Shown piece by piece: positions 15,068-59,525 of a stretch of 64,000 nucleotides of DNA (position 1 is its first letter; every line of letters begins with the position of its first letter). The notes beneath the pieces were generated by a model. That model searched no databases. It was given only the letters and a program-made list of their open reading frames with translations, and had not been told where the DNA came from. The position numbers and the translations under genes are program-made. The stretch is taken from assembly GCF_036507355.1 (NCBI RefSeq), contig NZ_AP027877.1; one strand, written 5' to 3'. The stretch comes from Escherichia coli. GTDB taxonomy: Bacteria > Pseudomonadota > Gammaproteobacteria > Enterobacterales > Enterobacteriaceae.

Positions 15068-18000
15068 AAATTCTCAGCCTGCGCCTGAAAAACCTGAACT
15101 CATTAAAAGGCGAATGGAAGATTGATTTCACCCGCGAGCCGTTCGCCAGCAACGGGCTGTTTGCCATTACCGGCCCAACCGGTGCGGGGAAAACCACCCT
15201 GCTGGACGCCATTTGTCTGGCGCTGTATCACGAAACTCCGCGTCTCTCTAACGTTTCACAATCGCAAAATGATCTCATGACCCGCGATACCGCTGAATGT
15301 CTGGCGGAGGTGGAGTTTGAAGTGAAAGGTCAAGCGTATCGCGCGTTCTGGAGCCAGAATCGGGCGCGTAACCAACCCGACGGTAATTTGCAGGTGCCAC
15401 GCGTAGAGCTGGCGCGCTGCGCCGACGGCAAAATTCTCGCCGACAAAGTGAAAGATAAGCTGGAACTGACAGCGACGTTAACCGGGCTGGATTACGGGCG
15501 CTTCACCCGTTCGATGCTGCTTTCGCAGGGGCAATTTGCTGCCTTCCTGAATGCCAAACCCAAAGAACGCGCGGAATTGCTCGAGGAGTTAACCGGCACT
15601 GAAATCTACGGGCAAATCTCGGCGATGGTTTTTGAGCAGCACAAATCGGCCCGCACTGAGCTGGAGAAGCTGCAAGCGCAGGCCAGCGGCGTCGCGTTGC
15701 TCACGCCGGAACAAGTGCAATCGCTGACAGCGAGTTTGCAGGTACTTACTGACGAAGAAAAACAGTTACTTACCGCGCAGCAGCAAGAACAACAATCACT
15801 AAACTGGTTAACGCGTCTGGACGAATTGCAGCAAGAAGCCAGCCGCCGTCAGCAGGCCTTGCAACAGGCGTTAGCCGAAGAAGAAAAAGCGCAACCTCAA
15901 CTGGCGGCGCTCAGTCTGGCACAACCGGCACGAAATCTTCGTCCGCACTGGGAACGCATCACAGAACACAGCGCGGCGCTGGCGCATACTCGCCAGCAGA
16001 TTGAAGAAGTAAATACTCGCTTACAGAGCACAATGGCGCTTCGCGCGAGCATTCGCCACCACGCGGCGAAGCAGTCAGCAGAATTACAGCAGCAGCAACA
16101 AAGCCTGAATACCTGGTTACAGGAACACGACCGCTTCCGTCAGTGGAACAACGAACTGGCGGGTTGGCGTGCGCAGTTCTCCCAACAAACCAGCGATCGC
16201 GAGCATCTGCGGCAATGGCAGCAACAGTTAACCCATGCTGAGCAAAAACTTAATACCCTTGCGGCGATCACGTTGACGTTAACCGCCGATGAAGTTGCTA
16301 GCGCCCTGGCGCAACATGCCGAGCAACGCCCACTGCGTCAGCGCCTGGTCGCGCTGCATGGGCAGATTGTTCCCCAACAAAAACGTCTGGCGCAGTTAAT
16401 GGTCACTATCCAGAATGTCACTCTGGAACAGACGCAACGTAATGCCGCACTTAACGAAATGCGCCAGCGTTATAAAGAAAAGACGCAGCAACTTGCCGAT
16501 GTGAAAACCATTTGCGAGCAGGAAGCGCGCATCAAAACGCTGGAAGCCCAGCGCGCGCAGTTACAGGCGGGTCAGCCTTGTCCACTTTGTGGTTCCACCA
16601 GCCATCCAGCGGTCGAGGCGTATCAGGCGCTGGAACCGGGCGTTAATCAGGCCCGGCTATTAACGCTGGAAAAAGAAGTGAAAAAGCTCGGCGAAGAAGG
16701 TGCGGCGCTGCGCGGGCAACTGGATGCATTAACGAAGCAGCTTCAGCGCGATGAAAACGAAGCGCAAAGCCTCCGACAAGATGAGCAAGCACTTACTCAA
16801 CAATGGCAAGCCGTCACAGCCAGCCTCAATATCACCTTGCAGCCACAGGACGATATTCAACCGTGGCTGGATGCACAAGATGAGCACGAACGCCAGCTGC
16901 GGTTACTCAGCCAACGGCATGAATTACAAGGGCAGATTGCCGCGCATAATCAGCAAATTATCCAGTATCAACAGCAAATTGAACAACGCCAGCAACTACT
17001 TTTAACGACATTGACGGGTTATGCACTGACATTGCCACAGGAAGATGAAGAAGAGAGCTGGTTGGCGACACGTCAGCAAGAAGCGCAGAGCTGGCAGCAA
17101 CGCCAGAACGAATTAACCGCGCTGCAAAACCGTATTCAGCAGCTGACGCCGATTCTGGAAACGTTGCCGCAAAGTGATGAACTCCCGCACTGCGAAGAAA
17201 CTGTGGTATTGGAAAACTGGCGGCAGGTACATGAACAATGTCTCGCATTACACAGCCAGCAGCAGACGTTACAGCAACAGGACGTTCTGGCAGCGCAAAG
17301 TCTGCAAAAAGCCCAGGCGCAGTTTGACACCGCGCTACAGGCCAGCGTCTTTGACGATCAGCAGGCGTTCCTTGCGGCGCTAATGGATGAACAAACACTA
17401 ACGCAACTGGAACAGCTCAAGCAGAATCTGGAAAACCAGCGCCGTCAGGCGCAAACGCTGGTCACTCAGACAGCAGAAACGCTGGCACAGCATCAGCAAC
17501 ACCGACCTGGCGGGTTGGCTCTCACTGTGACGGTGGAGCAGATTCAGCAAGAGTTAGCGCAAACTCACCAAAAGTTGCGTGAAAACACCACGAGTCAAGG
17601 CGAGATTCGCCAGCAGCTGAAGCAGGATGCAGATAACCGTCAGCAACAACAGACCTTAATGCAGCAAATTGCTCAAATGACGCAGCAGGTTGAGGACTGG
17701 GGATATCTGAATTCGCTAATAGGTTCCAAAGAGGGCGATAAATTCCGCAAGTTTGCCCAGGGGCTGACGCTGGATAATTTAGTTCATCTCGCTAATCAGC
17801 AACTTACCCGGCTGCACGGGCGCTATCTGTTACAGCGCAAAGCCAGCGAGGCGCTGGAAGTCGAGGTTGTTGATACCTGGCAGGCAGATGCGGTACGCGA
17901 TACCCGTACCCTTTCCGGCGGCGAAAGTTTCCTCGTTAGTCTGGCGCTGGCGCTGGCGCTTTCGGATCTGGTCAGCCATAAAACACGTATTGACTCGCTG

Positions 18001-18332: not shown

Positions 18333-19517
18333 ATGAAAAAAGTCATTTTATCTTTGGCTCTGGGCACGTTTGGTTTGGGGATGGCCGAATTTGGCATTAT
18401 GGGCGTGCTCACGGAGCTGGCGCATAACGTAGGAATTTCGATTCCTGCTGCCGGGCATATGATCTCGTATTATGCGCTGGGGGTGGTGGTCGGTGCGCCA
18501 ATAATCGCACTCTTTTCCAGCCGCTACTCACTCAAACATATCTTGTTGTTTCTGGTGGCGTTGTGCGTCATTGGCAACGCCATGTTCACGCTCTCTTCGT
18601 CTTACCTGATGCTTGCCATTGGTCGCCTGGTTTCCGGCTTTCCGCATGGCGCATTTTTTGGCGTCGGAGCGATCGTGTTATCAAAAATTATCAAACCCGG
18701 AAAAGTCACCGCCGCCGTGGCGGGGATGGTTTCCGGGATGACAGTCGCCAATTTGCTGGGCATTCCGCTGGGAACGTATTTAAGTCAGGAATTTAGCTGG
18801 CGTTACACCTTTTTATTGATCGCTGTTTTTAATATTGCGGTGATGGCATCGGTCTATTTTTGGGTGCCGGATATTCGCGACGAGGCGAAAGGAAAGCTGC
18901 GCGAACAATTTCACTTTTTGCGCAGCCCGGCCCCGTGGTTAATTTTCGCCGCCACCATGTTTGGCAACGCAGGTGTGTTTGCCTGGTTCAGCTACGTAAA
19001 GCCATACATGATGTTTATTTCCGGTTTTTCGGAAACGGCGATGACCTTTATTATGATGTTAGTTGGGCTAGGGATGGTGCTGGGAAATATGCTAAGTGGC
19101 AGGATTTCAGGACGTTATTCACCACTGCGCATTGCAGCAGTGACTGACTTTATCATTGTACTGGCACTGCTGATGCTCTTTTTCTGCGGCGGCATGAAAA
19201 CAACGTCGCTTATTTTTGCTTTTATTTGTTGCGCGGGATTATTTGCCCTTTCAGCACCTCTACAAATATTATTACTGCAAAATGCCAAAGGCGGAGAGTT
19301 ATTAGGTGCCGCAGGTGGGCAAATAGCGTTTAACCTCGGTAGCGCCGTCGGCGCATATTGCGGAGGTATGATGCTGACGCTGGGGCTGGCATATAATTAC
19401 GTGACGCTGCCTGCCGCCCTGCTTTCGTTTGCTGCGATGTCATCGTTGCTGCTGTATGGTCGCTATAAGCGCCAGCAAGCGGCGGATAGTCCGGTGCTGG
19501 CGAAACCACTGGGGTAG
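18333..19517 (+). CDS. araJ: MFS transporter AraJ (start taken at MKKVILSLALGTF)
   Basis: 12-TM MFS-type ORF following sbcC, matches AraJ by sequence memory and synteny. Confidence 0.88.
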   Translation: MKKVILSLALGTFGLGMAEFGIMGVLTELAHNVGISIPAAGHMISYYALGVVVGAPIIALFSSRYSLKHILLFLVALCVIGNAMFTLSSSYLMLAIGRLVSGFPHGAFFGVGAIVLSKIIKPGKVTAAVAGMVSGMTVANLLGIPLGTYLSQEFSWRYTFLLIAVFNIAVMASVYFWVPDIRDEAKGKLREQFHFLRSPAPWLIFAATMFGNAGVFAWFSYVKPYMMFISGFSETAMTFIMMLVGLGMVLGNMLSGRISGRYSPLRIAAVTDFIIVLALLMLFFCGGMKTTSLIFAFICCAGLFALSAPLQILLLQNAKGGELLGAAGGQIAFNLGSAVGAYCGGMMLTLGLAYNYVTLPAALLSFAAMSSLLLYGRYKRQQAADSPVLAKPLG

Positions 19518-19545
19518 ATTACTGTCACGGTGCGCGTTGCTTATT

Positions 19546-19634
19546 GCCGGATGCGGCGTGAACGCCTTATCCGCCCTACGCGGTTCTGGCACATTTTGTA
19601 GGCCTGATAAGATGCGGCAAGCGTCGCATCAGGC
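19546..19634. repeat. REP/BIME element (two palindromic units) between araJ and mak
   Basis: GCCGGATGCGGCGTGAACGCCTTATCCGCC and GTAGGCCTGATAAGATGCGGCAAGCGTCGCATCAGGC, the classic E. coli REP consensus family. Confidence 0.85.
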
Positions 19635-19659
19635 ATGATGCGCCAATTGCCTGGGTTTT

Positions 19660-20568
19660 TTACTCTTGTGGCCATAACCACGCAGCGCCGCGTACGCCGC
19701 TGGAATCACCGTGCTTCGCCTTACGCACCGGCGTTTCACATTCGCCGCCGAAGACAAATTGTTTAATCAACTGCGGAACCGTTTGATATAAACGGTCCAC
19801 ATTGCTCATCCCGCCCCCCAGGACAATCACATCCGGATCGAGAATATTCACGACATGTGCCAGCGATTTTGCCAGCCGCAGCTCGTAGCGACGCAATGCC
19901 AGTTCCGCTACCGGATCGCTTTCTTCAACCAGGCGGATAATTTCACTGCCTTTCAGCGCATGTCCGCTCAAACGACGATAATCCGTCGCGAATCCCGTGC
20001 CCGAAATAAAGGTTTCAATACAACCTTGTTTACCGCAATAACAAGGGACTTCCTCGCGATAACGCAGTTCGTCTTCGTCCATCCACGGTAGCGGATTGTG
20101 TCCCCACTCACCTGCCGTGCCATTGCCGCCGATATGCGCCCGCCCATTGAATGCCACACCCGCGCCGCATCCCGTGCCGATAATCACGGCAAATACCGTC
20201 TGCGCTCCCGCTGCCGCGCCATCTACTGCTTCTGAAACCGCCAGACAGTTGGCGTCATTTGCCAGCCGCACTTCCCGCTGCAACCTCGCGCTTAAGTCTT
20301 TATCGAATGGCTGACCGTTGAGCCAGGTTGAATTGGCATTCTTCACCACACCGGTGTAAGGCGAAATTGAGCCAGGAATGCCCATACCTACCGTTCCGCG
20401 CTGCCCCGTCGCCTGCTCCGCCATATCAACCAACGTGGCGATCGTTTCAATAGTCTGCCGGTAATCATCACGCGGCGTGGGCAGACGATGGCGGTACAAC
20501 TGCTCCCCTGCATCGCCCAGTGCAATCACTTCAGTTTTGGTGCCGCCTAAATCGATACCTATACGCAC
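19660..20568 (-). CDS. mak: fructokinase/mannokinase Mak (ROK family), GTG start at [14 protein letters not shown]
   Basis: ROK-family motifs ([19 protein letters not shown] zinc site); synteny araJ-mak-rdgC. Confidence 0.9.
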
Positions 20569-20692
20569 GGTACTCTCCTTATTTTTTTCAATATCAATAG
20601 CGTAGAGACGGACAACCGGATTGGCAATGCAAGGCCGCCGACAATTCGTTATCATGCCCGCTAAATTTAACGACAAGGCCGTGGAAATTATC

Positions 20693-21604
20693 ATGCTGTG
20701 GTTCAAAAATTTAATGGTTTACCGTCTTAGCCGCGAGATTTCGCTGCGTGCAGAAGAGATGGAAAAACAGCTAGCCTCGATGGCATTTACCCCATGCGGC
20801 AGCCAGGACATGGCGAAGATGGGCTGGGTTCCTCCGATGGGATCGCACAGCGATGCGTTAACGCACGTTGCCAATGGTCAAATTGTTATCTGCGCGCGCA
20901 AAGAAGAAAAAATCCTACCGTCTCCGGTGATTAAACAGGCGCTGGAAGCGAAAATCGCCAAACTGGAAGCGGAACAGGCGCGTAAGCTGAAGAAAACCGA
21001 AAAAGATTCGCTGAAAGACGAAGTGCTGCACTCTCTGTTGCCGCGTGCTTTCAGCCGTTTTAGCCAGACAATGATGTGGATCGACACGGTTAACGGTTTG
21101 ATTATGGTGGACTGCGCCAGTGCCAAAAAAGCGGAAGATACGCTGGCACTGCTGCGTAAAAGCCTGGGGTCGTTACCGGTTGTACCATTGAGCATGGAAA
21201 ACCCGATTGAACTGACGCTGACCGAATGGGTACGTTCCGGTAGTGCGGCACAGGGCTTCCAGTTGCTTGATGAAGCCGAGCTGAAATCGCTGCTGGAAGA
21301 TGGCGGCGTGATCCGCGCGAAGAAACAAGATCTGACCAGCGAAGAGATCACCAATCACATCGAAGCCGGAAAAGTGGTGACTAAACTGGCGCTCGACTGG
21401 CAGCAGCGCATTCAGTTTGTGATGTGCGACGATGGTTCGCTCAAGCGTCTGAAGTTCTGCGACGAGCTGCGCGATCAAAACGAAGATATCGACCGTGAAG
21501 ATTTCGCCCAGCGTTTTGATGCCGATTTCATCCTGATGACTGGTGAACTGGCAGCGTTAATTCAAAACCTGATTGAAGGATTAGGTGGCGAAGCACAACG
21601 TTAA
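20693..21604 (+). CDS. rdgC: recombination-associated protein RdgC (start taken at [12 protein letters not shown])
   Basis: 303-aa product recognised as RdgC; divergent from mak. Confidence 0.93.
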
Positions 21605-21623
21605 TTGCTGATTTTCCTTTAAT

Positions 21624-21656
21624 GCCGGATGCGACGCCTGCCGCGTCTTATCCGGC
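21624..21656. repeat. REP palindromic unit downstream of rdgC
   Basis: GCCGGATGCGACGCCTGCCGCGTCTTATCCGGC. Confidence 0.8.
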
Positions 21657-21681
21657 GTACAAAGCCACACCAGGCATATAA

Positions 21682-22137
21682 TTATTCGCTACGGCGGGCA
21701 ATAATTTTTAGCGCAGCAATATTATGCGTTTTACGCCGTAACTGATCGAATCGTCTCATCCCTATTCGCCTGTCAGCAGCACGCAGAATATTCACTAACC
21801 CCCATTTATCGCTGGTAAATTGTTTTGTTAACAGCTCCGCTTTTGGGGTATCAATATATTCACGCAATAAATCAGAAATTGAACAAATATCCGTCAGGTA
21901 AGGATACCAGCAAGTTTCACCGTGAAAATTACGCACTCCACCGTTACCTGCAATAAAGTCTTTCGGGTAATCCCAGATCACGTTTTTATCCAACGTGATC
22001 CAATAACGCGGTAAATCGGTGCTTCCACCATTTTGGCTGCGCATGGGATAACGGGTACAGTGAATTTGCAGGTTGATCGTTGGCGTCAGTAAGTCATAGA
22101 TCTCCCGCTGTAACTTGCTCCATGGACGTTGTGTCAT
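21682..22137 (-). CDS. hypothetical protein, 151 aa, distal gene of an AT-rich accessory operon (possibly the counterpart of K-12 ykiA, unverified)
   Basis: Intact ORF; start ATG overlaps the stop of the upstream 169-aa ORF by 4 nt (ATGA), indicating translational coupling; below-average GC. Confidence 0.6.
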   Translation of the reverse strand: MTQRPWSKLQREIYDLLTPTINLQIHCTRYPMRSQNGGSTDLPRYWITLDKNVIWDYPKDFIAGNGGVRNFHGETCWYPYLTDICSISDLLREYIDTPKAELLTKQFTSDKWGLVNILRAADRRIGMRRFDQLRRKTHNIAALKIIARRSE

Positions 22138-22643
22138 TGTTTTTCCTCAAGCCGGTGACGCGCTTCACTGCGAATTTTCCGCGTTGCCCCGGTTTTCACT
22201 AAATCACGTAACAGCGAAAGATCGGGTTGTTCGACAAATAAGAGTAATGATGGATCCTCTTTTAACCACGCCGTTTTCACATCGGCAGCCAGCTGTGGAT
22301 TATTAATAGCCAGCGACCGATCCTGAGGCTCAGTCAATGTCGTTAACAACGACGCCGGGGTATGTGCGTTGCGTAATGCCGTTTGGCGCAAATGATCATT
22401 GCGACTTTGCAGCAATGCACGCCACCATTCATCATCTGATTTATCTTTTATCGTCGCCAGTTCCGCAAAAATATCGCTATCCTCACGGTTCCAGCGGTGT
22501 AATCCTCTTTCACTTTGCCTACGGGTGCTATTTTTCATACTGACAACAGACAGCGCCCAGTCAGAGTTGAAGCGATACTGTTGATCGAGTTTGTTGATAA
22601 TTCCGGAAGATAAATCTTTATTATCAAATAATTGGTTACGCAT
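22134..22643 (-). CDS. hypothetical repeat-containing protein, 169-aa frame; probably the C-terminal part of the upstream large ORF after a frameshift
   Basis: Frame overlaps the 3' 109 nt of ORF 22535-24154; product continues the same Leu/Arg-rich helical repeat character (HTPASLLTTLTEPQDRSLAINNPQLAADV...). Confidence 0.5.
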   Translation of the reverse strand: MRNQLFDNKDLSSGIINKLDQQYRFNSDWALSVVSMKNSTRRQSERGLHRWNREDSDIFAELATIKDKSDDEWWRALLQSRNDHLRQTALRNAHTPASLLTTLTEPQDRSLAINNPQLAADVKTAWLKEDPSLLLFVEQPDLSLLRDLVKTGATRKIRSEARHRLEEKQ

Positions 22644-24201
22644 TCGATAGCGGTATTCAGCGGGTAAATCAACCGTAAATCAATGGCATTATTTAACATC
22701 TCTTCGTCAACAACACCATTATCAATCAGCGCCAGCTGTACTTCGTAGGCTTGCTCTTGATCTTCTTGCCGTTTGCTCATCATTAAATTTAATGTGCGTT
22801 GCCATAACTGTTTCTTATATTCCAGCGGCAATAATTTATCGCGTGCCAGCTCATCCCAGACGGTGGGAACATCATGCTGAGTCAGTAGATAACTAATTAC
22901 TTCCCTCGATGTCAGATAACGCGCACCTTCGCGCAAATTGTGCACATCTTCTTTTGCCAGAGACAGTTGACGCATCTCCGGCAACGCTATCAATAACGCC
23001 TTTACGATATTTTTATTTTCTTTATTATCCAGATACATTTGTTCTGCGATACGTTCAATATCCTCTGTACGCAGGGTTGCTGACAGTTGGGTAATTTTTA
23101 ATTCAGTAAGCGTCCGGGCTAATGCTTCACGAACTTTCAGTGATTTATCTTTACTCAACATCACTGCTTGTTGTGCGGTTAAATCTGCTCCGGTAATTCT
23201 TTCACGTAACTCCGGGTCTTCGTTATTTATCAACTCATCGGCCACTGCAGTCGGAACCAGCCAGGCGTAATCGTAATGGCTGAGTAATGTCTTGCGTACA
23301 CTGAGAAAGGGGCTATGACTTAACGACGCAACAATATCTGGAGAAAGATTATCCTGTCTGGCCTGCTCCAGCTGTACGCTCTCGACGGGTACAGACATTA
23401 ATTTTTTATTCACATCGGCGGAAATATTACTGTTTTTAACCAGCCCTCTGGCAACAGCCTCATCTTTAATTAATTCATCGGTAAGCAAATGCATCTGTTG
23501 AGCGGGCCAGGACTGCGCCATCGATTCACGCGTCTGGTCATCGGGGTGCTGTAACAGTTGCAGCATAACGGCGGGTGATAAACTCTCTGTATGAGTCAGA
23601 AAACGCGCCACCAGTGGATCTTGATGCTTTATTTTATTCGCTGGGAAATTATCGAGTTTCCCCGTTTCAATCCATTTTAATTTCTCATTAATTTCAGGAG
23701 CGGCTTTATCTCGAAAAAGCGGTAAACCCTGAACGATGTTGTCTGCGACGCTATCATAGTCAGGATACGCATTGGAAATGTTATCGGTTTCGATTTCAGT
23801 GTGATCATAAAGATCGGCAGTCACCAGTGAATAGGATTTTTGAATATTCTCATCCCAGTTATATCCTTCACCACTTCCATCTTCATTGATATAAAATTCA
23901 GCTTTAATGACTTCAAATTGCGTTGCTTTATCGGAAACAATAATGCCTCGCGCACTAATTCCCTTCATCACTTCAAAGTTATGATCATTGTAATCAGCAT
24001 AAACTAAACCTTTCGCTGTCATCTGTCCTTTGACATACGCGAAATCATGATTAATAAAGTTATCGACAATAACATTACCTAATACAATCAGATGACCATT
24101 ACCTGACAGATAATCATCATAATCGCCGGAAATCGTTAAATTACCGTTCACCACCAGTTTATTTTGATTGCTGAAGTTAGCGGGTAATGATAGGTCACCA
24201 T
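22535..24201 (-). pseudogene. large repeat-rich (HEAT/LRV-like helical repeats, by-eye call) protein gene, N-terminally truncated by IS1 and probably frameshifted near 22680
   Basis: Reading frame is open upstream of the annotated GTG (24154) straight into the IS1 end at 24202 with no start codon; repeated motifs of type LSPDIVASLSHSPFLSVRKTL / DPELRERITGADLTAQQAVMLSKDKSLKVREALA; AT-rich. Confidence 0.6.
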
Positions 24202-24216
24202 GGTAATGACTCCAAC

Positions 24217-24720
24217 TTATTGATAGTGTTTTATGTTCAGATAATGCCCGATGACTTTGTCATGCAGCTCCACCGATTTTGAGAACGACAGCGACTTCCG
24301 TCCCAGCCGTGCCAGGTGCTGCCTCAGATTCAGGTTATGCCGCTCAATTCGCTGCGTATATCGCTTGCTGATTACGTGCAGCTTTCCCTTCAGGCGGGAT
24401 TCATACAGCGGCCAGCCATCCGTCATCCATATCACCACGTCAAAGGGTGACAGCAGGCTCATAAGACGCCCCAGCGTCGCCATCGTGCGTTCACCGAATA
24501 CGTGCGCAACAACCGTCTTCCGGAGCCTGTCATACGCGTAAAACAGCCAGCGCTGGCGCGATTTAGCCCCGACATAGCCCCACTGTTCGTCCATTTCCGC
24601 GCAGACGATGACGTCACTGCCCGGCTGTATGCGCGAGGTTACCGACTGCGGCCTGAGTTTTTTAAGTGACGTAAAATCGTGTTGAGGCCAACGCCCATAA
24701 TGCGGGCTGTTGCCCGGCAT
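24217..24720 (-). CDS. insB: IS1 transposase InsB (expressed as InsAB' by -1 frameshift)
   Basis: 167-aa [19 protein letters not shown]..., recognised IS1 InsB. Confidence 0.93.
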
Positions 24721-24914
24721 CCAACGCCATTCATGGCCATATCAATGATTTTCTGGTGCGTACCGGGTTGAGAAGCGGTGTAAGTGAACTGCAGTTGCCA
24801 TGTTTTACGGCAGTGAGAGCAGAGATAGCGCTGATGTCCGGCGGTGCTTTTGCCGTTACGCACCACCCCGTCAGTAGCTGAACAGGAGGGACAGCTGATA
24901 GAAACAGAAGCCAC
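24639..24914 (-). CDS. insA: IS1 protein InsA
   Basis: 91-aa [46 protein letters not shown]..., recognised IS1 InsA. Confidence 0.95.
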
Positions 24915-25141
24915 TGGAGCACCTCAAAAACACCATCATACACTAAATCAGTAAGTTGGCAGCATCACCCAGATGACCAATATATTAATTCTATTCATAA
25001 TCTTCAATGATATTTATATCAACCTTGATGAATTATGAATATATCGGAAATTGAAAAAATCGCAGCAAAGGAAATATTATTATGGGTTAAAGAGATGATA
25101 TTTCAGAAAAATGCCCTCCCGTTCAAGGGGAAGGCGAGGAA

Positions 25142-34578: not shown

Positions 34579-34636
34579 GATTTACGTTGCCAGATACGGC
34601 CTAAAACGCCTTATCTGGCATGACATTCCTGTTTAA

Positions 34637-38722: not shown

Positions 38723-38920
38723 AATTCTATTTTGCCAGGCTAACCAGTAAAAAGCGTCTCGCCAGAGTTGATTTTGTTCAATAAGCGTAATGGTTTGTTT
38801 GGCTGGTAGATGATATCCCGTACAATTTCCTTCTGATATTAATTTGTATGGTATATCGTTTTTCAGGTGATGCTGCCAACTTACTGATTTAGTGTATGAT
38901 GGTGTTTTTGAGGTGCTCCA

Positions 38921-39196
38921 GTGGCTTCTGTTTCTATCAGCTGTCCCTCCTGTTCAGCTACTGACGGGGTGGTGCGTAACGGCAAAAGCACCGCCGGACA
39001 TCAGCGCTATCTCTGCTCTCACTGCCGTAAAACATGGCAACTGCAGTTCACTTACACCGCTTCTCAACCCGGTACGCACCAGAAAATCATTGATATGGCC
39101 ATGAATGGCGTTGGATGCCGGGCAACAGCCCGCATTATGGGCGTTGGCCTCAACACGATTTTACGTCACTTAAAAAACTCAGGCCGCAGTCGGTAA
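38921..39196 (+). CDS. insA: IS1 protein InsA
   Basis: Identical to the InsA of the other IS1 copy. Confidence 0.95.
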
Positions 39197-39618
39197 CCTC
39201 GCGCATACAGCCGGGCAGTGACGTCATCGTCTGCGCGGAAATGGACGAACAGTGGGGCTATGTCGGGGCTAAATCGCGCCAGCGCTGGCTGTTTTACGCG
39301 TATGACAGGCTCCGGAAGACGGTTGTTGCGCACGTATTCGGTGAACGCACGATGGCGACGCTGGGGCGTCTTATGAGCCTGCTGTCACCCTTTGACGTGG
39401 TGATATGGATGACGGATGGCTGGCCGCTGTATGAATCCCGCCTGAAGGGAAAGCTGCACGTAATCAGCAAGCGATATACGCAGCGAATTGAGCGGCATAA
39501 CCTGAATCTGAGGCAGCACCTGGCACGGCTGGGACGGAAGTCGCTGTCGTTCTCAAAATCGGTGGAGCTGCATGACAAAGTCATCGGGCATTATCTGAAC
39601 ATAAAACACTATCAATAA
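39115..39618 (+). CDS. insB: IS1 transposase InsB
   Basis: Identical to the InsB of the other IS1 copy. Confidence 0.93.
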
Positions 39619-39821
39619 GTTGGAGTCATTACCCGTTTTTCATTAAACCATCAGCCAGCCCCATAATATAAGGAGCCTGGGTAATACCGATAAGTACGTT
39701 TTCTTCTCTACGCAGAGAGATAACGCCCTCTAAAATAACGAAAGTATCTTCGCTATTGACATCACTGGAAAATATAACTTGCTTTTCATTATTAAACTCG
39801 AAGCGCGTACCGTATCTGGAC

Positions 39822-40132: not shown

Positions 40133-40150
40133 TGAATCGCCACGGATAAT

Positions 40151-40963
40151 CTAGACACTTCCGAGCCGTTGATAATACTGGTTTTCATATTCTGTCGGTG
40201 ACATCTGATCGCTGGAACCATGCCGACGCTTACTGTTATAAAACATTTCGATGTAATCAAAAATATCGCTGCGGGCTTCTTCCCGCGTTCCGTAGATCTT
40301 TTTCTTTATCCGTTCGCGTTTCAACAACTGGAAAAAGCTTTCTGCAACCGCATTATCATGGCAGTTACCGCGACGGCTCATGCTGCCATCCAGGCCGTGT
40401 GATTTCAGGAACGACTGCCACTCATGGCTTGTGTACTGACTGCCCTGATCCGAATGAACCAGCACCTGTTTTTGGGGATTACGGCGCCATACAGCCATCA
40501 GCAGTGCGTTCAGGACAATGTCCTTTGTCATCCGGGATTGCATGGACCAGCCGATAATTTTGCGTGAGAACAGATCAACAACCACGGCAAGATACAGCCA
40601 GCCTTCGTGGGTCCTGATGTAGGTTATGTCCGTTACCCAACGCTTATCCGGAGCATCCGGATTGAACTGTCGCTGGAGCCTGTTGGGCGACACGATACTG
40701 GCCTCGCCTTTACGTGCCCGCGGGCTCCGGTATCCGACCTGAGCCTTTATCCCGACACGTTTCATCAGTCGCCAGACTCTGTTCACTCCGCACTGTTGCC
40801 CGCTGTCCCGCAGATCCAGATGGATTTTGCGATAACCATAGACGCATCCCGATTCCAGCCAGAACTGTTTAATCTGCCCTGTCAGCCTCAGGTCTGCCTG
40901 ATGGCGTTGTGAATGCGGCTGCTGAAGCCAGGCGTAAAAACCACTGGGATGAACATCCAGCAC
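40151..40963 (-). CDS. IS3-family transposase OrfB (DDE catalytic domain)
   Basis: 270-aa ORF with DITYI...WLYLAVVVDLFSRKIIGW, HSDQGSQYTS and ...DNAVAESFFQLLKRE motifs characteristic of IS3-family integrase core. Confidence 0.9.
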   Translation of the reverse strand: MLDVHPSGFYAWLQQPHSQRHQADLRLTGQIKQFWLESGCVYGYRKIHLDLRDSGQQCGVNRVWRLMKRVGIKAQVGYRSPRARKGEASIVSPNRLQRQFNPDAPDKRWVTDITYIRTHEGWLYLAVVVDLFSRKIIGWSMQSRMTKDIVLNALLMAVWRRNPQKQVLVHSDQGSQYTSHEWQSFLKSHGLDGSMSRRGNCHDNAVAESFFQLLKRERIKKKIYGTREEARSDIFDYIEMFYNSKRRHGSSDQMSPTEYENQYYQRLGSV

Positions 40964-41019
40964 CCGACAGAGCAGGCGAACAGGCCAGCAACAGGTGTTG
41001 TCACGGATAAAGGCGTACC

Positions 41020-41298
41020 TCAGTCGGACAGCTTTGCGAAGTACGCCGCGGCTTTTTTTAATATGTCCCGTTCGTCGGTAACCCGCTTCAGCTCTTTCTG
41101 GAGACGGCGGATCTCGGCCTGAGCATCTGACTGTTCTTTATTAGCGGAAGAATCCGGACCGTACTTCTTTATCCAGGCGTAAAGGCTGTGGGTGGTGATA
41201 TCGAGACGTGTTGCAACGCTGGCAACAGAATAACCGCGATCAACAACCTGTTTGACTGCTTCAATTTTAAACTCTTCGGGATAACGCTTACCGCTCAT
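41020..41298 (-). CDS. IS3-family transposase OrfA (HTH DNA-binding, leucine zipper)
   Basis: MSGKRYPEEFKIEAVKQVVDRGYSVASVATRLDITTHSLYAWIKKY...ILKKAAAYFAKLSD. Confidence 0.9.
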   Translation of the reverse strand: MSGKRYPEEFKIEAVKQVVDRGYSVASVATRLDITTHSLYAWIKKYGPDSSANKEQSDAQAEIRRLQKELKRVTDERDILKKAAAYFAKLSD

Positions 41299-41360
41299 GG
41301 GCACCTCTCTTTAAGCCATCTTAAATGACTCTGAGGTGTCTGTTAAACCCGTGGCGATTC

Positions 41361-41699
41361 ACCATGAATCAGGGAGTTGCTGATGTTCAACTGGTTTGTT
41401 GTTCCATCAGTAAAGTCATGATTCAGGTAATATGTAGAGATAGCCCCGTTAACAGTGTCACCATTAAAGGTGGTATCGAAATCACCGTTTGTGTTGTTAT
41501 AGTAGACAAAGCCACTATAATTCACATAGTTACCATCTACAGTACCCGGTGCATCCATATTGCTCCAGTCAAGAGCAGTAGTTGGATTGTCGTAATAAGT
41601 CCAGGTGTCATAAGTAGTTGCATTAGCCTGAGAGGTGATAGCCAGAGTGCAAGCCAATGCTAATTGTGATACTACAAGTTTCTTTTTCCAGGAGTGCAT
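41361..41699 (-). pseudogene. yaiT: autotransporter N-terminal fragment (signal peptide + start of passenger domain; yaiT-like remnant) running into the IS3-family element
   Basis: MHSWKKKLVVSQLALACTLAITSQANA signal peptide followed by Thr/Asn/Tyr-rich passenger-like sequence; the last 5 codons and stop are supplied by the IS terminal repeat. Confidence 0.55.
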
Positions 41700-57334: not shown

Positions 57335-57420
57335 GCCGGATGCGGCGTGAACGCCTTATCCGCCTACATTTCGCCCGCAGGCCGTAGGCATGATAAGACG
57401 CGCATAGCGTCGCATCAGGC
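57335..57420. repeat. REP/BIME element (two palindromic units) between frmB and yaiL
   Basis: GCCGGATGCGGCGTGAACGCCTTATCCGCC and GCCGTAGGCATGATAAGACGCGCATAGCGTCGCATCAGGC. Confidence 0.85.
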
Positions 57421-59296: not shown

Positions 59297-59390
59297 AAGA
59301 TGAACCTCGTTGCGAGTGCAGGTGAATCGCGACTGATACATTGCCAGCCGCGTAATCAGAACCATTTAATGACTGCCTACGGGCGAAATG

Positions 59391-59525
<135 letters not shown>

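Follow-up and report, generated by a model that had tools for sequence, protein, structure and literature searches.

The spacer between araJ and mak in the Escherichia coli DNA analyzed here, a stretch of 64,000 nucleotides referred to as the window, carries a pair of palindromes with the appearance of REP elements, and similar palindromes lie at three further places in the same window. REPs are non-autonomous repeats that owe their spread and reshuffling to the REP-associated tyrosine transposase (TnpA-REP, or RAYT), which acts on single-stranded DNA, and that persist only in extragenic positions, mostly at the 3' ends of genes. The locus thus raises the question of which class of element these palindromes belong to, whether they bear any relation to two low-GC insertions in the window (acpH-malZ and rdgC-ppnP), as had been suggested on the basis of the sequence, and which local role they might have for the genes that they adjoin. 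In comparison to K-12, the window corresponds to the region of about 370.4-430 kb in reverse orientation, with the mhp operon at one end and yajC and tgt at the other, and its gene layout resembles that of O157:H7.

Eight REP units at four intergenic sites

REP units were called de novo, and the K-12 RefSeq record carries no REP repeat features. A two-arm caller and an nhmmer profile constructed from 28 distinct units of seven strains identified eight REP units in total in the 64-kb window, distributed over four sites that we refer to as A to D (Table 1). All eight units score at E = 1e-13 to 9e-8 in the nhmmer search, and the next match in the window follows at E = 0.029. The original prediction had placed classic REP palindromes at these four sites and had proposed a pattern search with the REP consensus as a check. 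Allowing at most one mismatch, such a search returned three matches to the Y consensus and one to the Z2 consensus, where 0.00 are expected from 100 shuffles; with no match in the shuffled sequences, a reading of the sites as chance palindromes was rejected. The Y and Z2 consensus strings used are reportedly those of Bachellier et al., and they are corroborated by the match of the Rfam naRNA4 model, which represents a Y+Z2 pair, at site D. Consensus matches, profile scores and predicted hairpins agree with the sites as originally predicted, the coordinates being right to within 1-4 nt, and the unit numbers given for each site (2, 1, 2 and 3) were right. At site B, the palindrome that had been placed at 21624-21656 is a real unit, but the end assigned to it leaves out the CGTAC foot, so that the true end is at 21660.

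Table 1. Positions of REP units, linkers and other features in the 64-kb window; hairpin energies are given in kcal/mol.
Feature	Position	Strand	Detection or description	Hairpin	Distance to stop codon
Site A (araJ/mak), Y-type REP unit	19546-19579	+	nhmmer E = 3.6e-9; one mismatch to Y consensus	-14.5	28 nt past araJ stop
Site A, linker	19580-19597		18 nt, tail-to-tail		
Site A, Z2-type REP unit	19598-19634	-	nhmmer E = 2.5e-11	-15.5	25 nt past mak stop
Site A, extended stem around Z2 unit and T6/U6 run	19575-19660 (run at 19654-19660)	araJ strand	run abuts mak stop codon		
Site B (rdgC 3' side), single REP unit	21624-21660	+	nhmmer E = 3.5e-10	-23.4 (z = -4.8)	19 nt past rdgC stop, 21 nt before SF0329-family gene stop
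Site C (frmB/yaiL), Y-type REP unit	57335-57367	+	nhmmer E = 9.2e-8	-14.5	starts 15 nt past frmB stop
Site C, linker	57368-57383		16 nt, tail-to-tail		
Site C, Z2-type REP unit	57384-57420	-	nhmmer E = 5.8e-11	-14.7	23 nt past yaiL stop
Site D (mhpE/mhpT), Y-type REP unit	59390-59423	-	zero mismatches to Y consensus	-21.3	
Site D, linker	59424-59437		14 nt, head-to-head		
Site D, Z2-type REP unit	59438-59473	+	zero mismatches to Z2 consensus	-21.4 (z = -6.0)	
Site D, linker	59474-59490		17 nt, tail-to-tail		
Site D, second Y-type REP unit	59491-59524	-	one mismatch to Y consensus	-21.3	48 nt past mhpE stop
Rfam RF02564 (naRNA4) match	59393-59470		88 bits (gathering threshold 59.5 bits), model positions 1-77 of 77		
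Degenerate REP-like hairpin (yaiY/yaiW)	34589-34623	+	nhmmer E = 0.24		
acpH-malZ insertion	4861-6484		1,624 bp, ~37% GC		
473-aa ORF of acpH-malZ insertion	4876-6297	-			
Hairpin with 20-nt arms	6404-6451				just past malZ stop
rdgC-ppnP module	21682-24999		compared locus L008: 4856-7587		
IS1, first copy	24202-24969		768 bp, in DUF2773 gene		
IS1, second copy	38866-39633		768 bp, in ehaB/yaiT autotransporter remnant		
IS3-family element	~40133-41415		rve integrase domains		
Block replacing K-12 yaiS-to-yaiO segment	46758-54881		8.1 kb		

The units are 33-37 nt long, and folding predicts a hairpin for each of the eight, the energies ranging from -14.5 to -23.4 kcal/mol and the z-scores from -3 to -6. 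When 14 units from the window, from other strains and from other Escherichia species are aligned, standard pairing is found in 97.3% of the cells, as compared to 30-50% when the pairing partners are slid, and compensatory double changes occur at 5 of the 13 stem pairs. The stem contains an internal mismatch (column 9, C, opposite column 27, T) that is unpaired in all predicted folds; in the rdgC-site units of other Escherichia species, column 9 is T in two units and column 27 is A in one. This internal mismatch is needed for binding by TnpA-REP (PMC3333891). The foot of the hairpin reads GTAG (CTAC on the strand shown) in seven of the eight units and GTAC at site B. Furthermore, the sequences are repeated throughout E. 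coli genomes, as 601-bp queries containing the BIMEs have a median of at least 25 and at least 39 match places per complete E. coli genome.

All eight units are extragenic, lying between the ORFs of the window as well as between the annotated genes of orthologous RefSeq records, and at all sites the distance from a unit to a stop codon is 15-48 nt. The expectation of convergent or 3'-proximal spacers was borne out in this respect: the genes flanking site A (araJ and mak), site B (rdgC and the SF0329-family gene) and site C (frmB and yaiL) are convergent, and site D is located 3' of mhpE between the co-directional genes mhpE and mhpT, 48 nt past the mhpE stop codon and 94 nt before the mhpT start. 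REPs near stop codons are said to reduce translation, a result attributed to Liang, Rudd and Deutscher in 2015, and the 15 nt that separate the frmB stop codon from its REP might be of relevance in this respect.

Taken together, the sites are almost certainly ordinary members of the E. coli REP family, comprising three short BIME-2 arrays and one decayed singleton. The REP/BIME elements found here are already known, and REP/BIME elements in general, their position in 3' UTRs, their length polymorphism and their targeting by IS1397 have been known since the 1980s and 1990s; four intergenic features of the window are now correctly annotated. The original list of sites is complete, with one possible addition in the form of a degenerate REP-like hairpin in the spacer where yaiY and yaiW converge, the nhmmer score of which is non-significant when taken alone (Table 1). 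It matches the Y consensus at about 26 of 34 positions, and in the alignment a compensatory G>A / C>T double change, which gives an A-U pair at column 4/32, preserves the pairing of its stem. Judged by these sequence features, the hairpin is a probable decayed Y unit.

BIME-2 arrays and their variation between strains

Sites A, C and D are BIME-2 arrays of alternating Y and Z2 units, with the orientations +/-, +/- and -/+/-, respectively, and linkers of 14-18 nt. Their resemblance to known E. coli BIME-2 elements, namely REP325 at yjdM/yjdN and the K-12 arrays at the same loci, covers the unit sequences (0-1 mismatches at site D), the alternating orientation, the short linkers, the period of about 100 bp, the extragenic 3' position and the orthology of the loci, whereas the arrays of the window are shorter and have, at sites A and C, point mutations that weaken the stem or a 1-nt deletion. 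BIME-1 elements, which combine a Y and a Z1 unit with a long L linker containing an IHF site, likewise present an inverted REP pair in an intergenic spacer. A BIME-1 reading was nevertheless rejected, since the Z units of the window have the long Z2 inner stem and are not Z1 units, the linkers are short, and neither the BIMEs nor their linkers contain an IHF consensus, all eight IHF-consensus matches of the window falling elsewhere. The Y/Z2 pairs can alternatively fold as one long hairpin with -54 to -70 kcal/mol and z-scores of -4 to -6.5 (-54 to -64 kcal/mol and z = -4 to -5 for the pair at site C). In this they are similar to the RAYT-mobilized REPINs of Pseudomonas (PMC3116915, PMC3337134), which are inverted REP doublets foldable into one long hairpin, but the E. 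coli units belong to another sequence family. No RAYT gene is present within the 64-kb window, and the RAYT gene of K-12 maps outside this region.

At site A, the outer stem of the Y unit has a G>C change (CCGCCCTAC), a variant that is common to K-12, N3, O157 and WP2, while a G>A change in the inner stem of the Z2 unit occurs only in the window among the seven strains compared. The linker between the CTAC/GTAG feet of the two units is free of an IHF consensus. The Y unit of site C has a 1-nt deletion, and this allele is common to the window, N3 and O157. With stems of -14.5 to -15.5 kcal/mol as compared to about -21 kcal/mol, the Y and Z2 units of sites A and C may be functionally decaying. 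At araJ/mak, identity to the window does not exceed 99.5% in any complete E. coli genome.

The number of units at the three arrays differs between strains. Sites A and C each have two units in the window, N3, O157, WP2 and AST240 and four in K-12 and APEC O18; site D has three units in the window and in O157, nine in K-12, two in N3 and one each in WP2 and AST240. In APEC O18, a B2-type strain, the mhp operon and mhpT are absent and lacI nearly adjoins yaiL (locus positions 15773-15975), so that this strain is without the BIME locus of site D. The K-12 arrays show tandem periods of 101 bp with 4.4 copies and of 100 bp with 2.1 copies, and across 5,426 E. coli genomes the allele-length classes are about 100 bp apart. 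This is consistent with arrays that would expand and contract by whole Y+Z2 periods of about 100 bp, and the 2, 2 and 3 units of the window versus the 4, 4 and 9 units of K-12 are accounted for by gain or loss of such periods. A route to copy gain and loss is provided by TnpA-REP, which cuts BIMEs on single-stranded DNA and recombines them. Both the BIME-2 description and the length polymorphism match published accounts (PMC3333891, PMC1187871), amongst them, as far as PMC1187871 relates it, the length polymorphism of BIME-2 loci described by Bachellier et al. (1997). With 1-9 units depending on the strain, the three BIME-2 loci represent convenient length-polymorphic markers.

Variation at these loci also includes the insertion of a mobile element. 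In E. coli strain 1579, a copy of IS1397 occupies the central loop of the site A Z2 unit (locus positions 4320-5291), with a 3-bp overlap at the junction. IS1397 is the classic REP-specific insertion sequence, and REPs are targets of both IS1397 and IS621 (PMC1525189).

Single units such as the one at site B make up 84 of the 584 REPs of K-12 (PMC3333891). Site B resembles them in being a solitary imperfect palindrome of 37 nt that lies between convergent genes and has the conserved mismatch; it differs from them in its hybrid stem, which is of the Y type in the outer and of the Z2 type in the inner part, and in its foot, which is GTAC as opposed to GTAG. The unit is identical at 37 of 37 positions in six other E. 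coli strains, the K-12 orthologue being located at 409052-409088, while E. albertii and strain MOD1-EC7003 keep CCTAC at the foot. As TnpA-REP binding requires the GTAG foot (PMC3333891), the site B unit can probably no longer be mobilized, and the retention of CCTAC in E. albertii and MOD1-EC7003 makes the E. coli copy look decayed and immobile. In Escherichia sp. E1V33, the rdgC REP (+20 to +58) is a perfect palindrome (GCCGGATGTGACGCAC...GTGCGTCACATCCGGC) that has lost the internal mismatch.

REP units and the two low-GC insertions

The original prediction located the two low-GC insertions next to REPs or in regions otherwise rich in them. K-12 contains 584 REP units and 355 annotated elements in 4.64 Mb (PMC3333891, PMC4550694), and 8.05 units at 4.9 loci per 64 kb are predicted on this basis, as compared to the 8 units at 4 loci that were found. 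The unit and locus counts equal the K-12 genome average and the window is therefore not REP-rich. The proposed connection of REPs with the acpH-malZ insertion was not borne out either, since the nearest REP is 13 kb away. The acpH-malZ insertion is precise: at the empty site of K-12 the stop codons of malZ and acpH are 4 bp apart. It carries a single ORF, for which searches of Pfam, NCBIfam, PADLOC and PDB sequences returned no match, and 1,126 out of 5,426 complete E. coli genomes carry the insertion, at best with about 97% identity. A hairpin with 20-nt arms is found just past the malZ stop codon (Table 1).

Two genes make up the rdgC-ppnP module, a 151-aa SF0329-family gene and a gene for a 759-aa protein in which a C-terminal DUF2773 is the only domain. 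The copy of the large gene in O157:H7 is intact, and that of the window is disrupted by a frameshift near 22535-22643 and by IS1. All matched E. coli chromosomes keep at least the flanks and a remnant of the module, and ykiA and ykiD of K-12 are such remnants. A paralogue with about 28% identity is found elsewhere in some E. coli chromosomes, and a search of plasmids returned only chromosomes misfiled as plasmids. For the proteins of the two insertions, no clue to a function came from the searches of Pfam, NCBIfam, PADLOC and PDB sequences. From its distribution, the module is specific to the genus Escherichia, as is the REP of site B.

In order to compare the spacer across Enterobacteriaceae, outgroups were collected with a degenerate-pattern scan for the 3' end of rdgC, which yielded 62 loci and did not recover E. 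fergusonii; an exact look-up of the PpnP sequence returned E. coli-type contexts only and no outgroup. Amongst the 62 loci, a REP at +20 past the rdgC stop codon occurs together with the module or its remnants in five Escherichia species. Both are absent in about 50 other Enterobacteriaceae, including Salmonella, Klebsiella, Enterobacter and Kosakonia, where the stop codons of rdgC and ppnP are 36-136 bp apart. Outside of Escherichia, the spacer usually carries a GC-rich, terminator-like hairpin (CCCCTCTC/GAGAGGGG), and REP-like units without an insertion are found in C. amalonaticus, C. sedlakii and a Citrobacter metagenome-assembled genome, one of them being a pair. The comparison of island boundaries with REP positions in relatives, which had been proposed as a check, thus shows co-occurrence in Escherichia, but REPs without an insertion in Citrobacter. 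This pattern indicates that an ancestral terminator-like hairpin was lost from the spacer and that REPs were gained independently in Escherichia and in some Citrobacter. The observation that the rdgC REP abuts the island holds in the physical sense, as the unit lies at the rdgC-side edge of the module, but the breakpoints are not at the REP: homology to K-12 extends 83 bp beyond it, and the E. coli deletion breakpoints (21743/22106 and 22475/25000) are inside the module.

The co-occurrence in all five Escherichia species recovered, the joint absence in the other Enterobacteriaceae and the position of the site B unit exactly at the module edge could be taken to mean that the SF0329/DUF2773 module, and possibly the acpH-malZ gene, came in at points marked or provided by REPs, through REP-targeted insertion or recombination between REPs. 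REPs are after all targeted by IS1397 and IS621, as exemplified by the site A BIME of strain 1579, and strain-specific loops of K-12 are enriched in BIMEs (PMC1187871). We nonetheless consider this very unlikely. REPs are missing at and around the acpH-malZ insertion, a recombinase gene is absent from the module, and the direct and inverted repeats flanking the two insertions amount to short, chance-level matches. Only a single REP is present, on one side of the module, the E. coli deletion breakpoints are away from it, Citrobacter REPs occupy the same spacer without an insertion, and the REP density of the window is average; the BIME-loop associations, in turn, are mostly due to the polymorphic segment being the BIME itself (PMC1187871). 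It is likewise very unlikely indeed that the rdgC REP and the SF0329/DUF2773 module entered the spacer together in an Escherichia ancestor, or that the module inserted into a pre-existing REP, with the ancestral bidirectional terminator being replaced; either course of events, if true, would represent a REP-associated capture of a gene cassette other than an IS. The most suitable reading is that the site B REP and the module occupy a permissive convergent spacer independently of each other. The association of REPs with the insertions is largely unsupported, and it should therefore not guide the reading of the two low-GC insertions.

Local role of the hairpins

REP325 acts as an mRNA stabilizer and partial Rho-dependent terminator, convergent gene pairs with REPs show higher expression, and BIME-2 elements are enriched in gyrase cleavage (PMC6379681), although REP effects are context-dependent and often small (bioRxiv 10.64898/2026.03.23.713779). 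By analogy to these elements, a local role of the sites in mRNA stabilization, termination and gyrase binding can be inferred. Once transcribed in the 3' UTRs of araJ, mak, rdgC, frmB, yaiL and mhpE, the units would fold into stable GC-rich hairpins, which would block 3'-to-5' exonucleases and thereby stabilize the upstream mRNA. The hairpins would also act as partial, largely Rho-dependent terminators that insulate convergent neighbors from each other, and those at site D might attenuate read-through from mhpE into mhpT. At the level of DNA, the BIME-2 arrays would be expected to serve as preferred gyrase sites.

Two other interpretations of the hairpins have to be weighed against their assignment as REPs. 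The location just 3' of stop codons, the extended stem around the Z2 unit of site A with the U6 run that follows it, and the GC-rich hairpin typical of a bidirectional terminator in the outgroup rdgC/ppnP spacer would all be in line with ordinary intrinsic (Rho-independent) terminators that merely resemble REPs. The stems of sites B, C and D, however, are not followed by a T-run, as direct reading of the sequence confirmed for sites C and D, and plain intrinsic terminators were rejected for these three sites for this reason. Moreover, the units are members of a family dispersed in hundreds of copies and share features outside of stem pairing, namely the conserved GTAG foot and the internal mismatch, so that we assign this interpretation a nearly negligible probability; terminator and REP roles are in any case not mutually exclusive. 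For site D, the sole above-threshold Rfam match in the whole window, which encompasses the first Y unit, could be read as a dedicated nucleoid-associated RNA of the naRNA4 type that condenses the chromosome together with HU, as opposed to a generic BIME. Its score clearly exceeds the gathering threshold (Table 1), and a naRNA model has been put forward for REP325 (PMC4550694). The source of the naRNA4 family is, however, REP325, in which Z2 and Y units alternate (bioRxiv 10.64898/2026.03.23.713779), so the model is a plain Y+Z2 pair that any canonical BIME-2 pair would match, and the hit confirms the unit types of site D without pointing to a separate gene. The score would accordingly reflect similarity to the REP325 Y/Z2 pair and is not evidence of a nucleoid function. 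In addition, site D lies at mhpE/mhpT, whereas REP325 lies at yjdM/yjdN, and recent work on REP325 and the naRNAs found no measurable nucleoid compaction, but a role as local terminator or stabilizer. A unit number ranging from 1 to 9 across strains argues against a conserved RNA gene, and the entire mhp locus is missing in the only B2-type strain examined, APEC O18. A dedicated naRNA4-type RNA at site D is thus highly improbable, and the assignment of the sites as REP family members is retained.

A terminator scan of 19300-21900, a range that includes both site A and site B, did not report any of the REPs. On the araJ strand of site A, the extended stem around the Z2 unit leads into a T6/U6 run that abuts the mak stop codon. 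As this run is directly 3' of the extended stem, araJ may end at a REP-embedded intrinsic terminator.

Several larger elements of the window were noted along with the REP sites. As in O157:H7, the yaiS-to-yaiO segment of K-12 is replaced by an 8.1-kb block encoding a response regulator and a MASE1 histidine kinase (two-component system), a UhpC-like transporter and an ABC transporter. The two IS1 copies are 100% identical, inverted and about 14 kb apart, and recombination between them could invert the ppnP-to-iprA segment. The IS3-family element replaces most of the ehaB/yaiT autotransporter gene, and together with the IS1 copies it suggests an IS-rich, Shigella-like genome.
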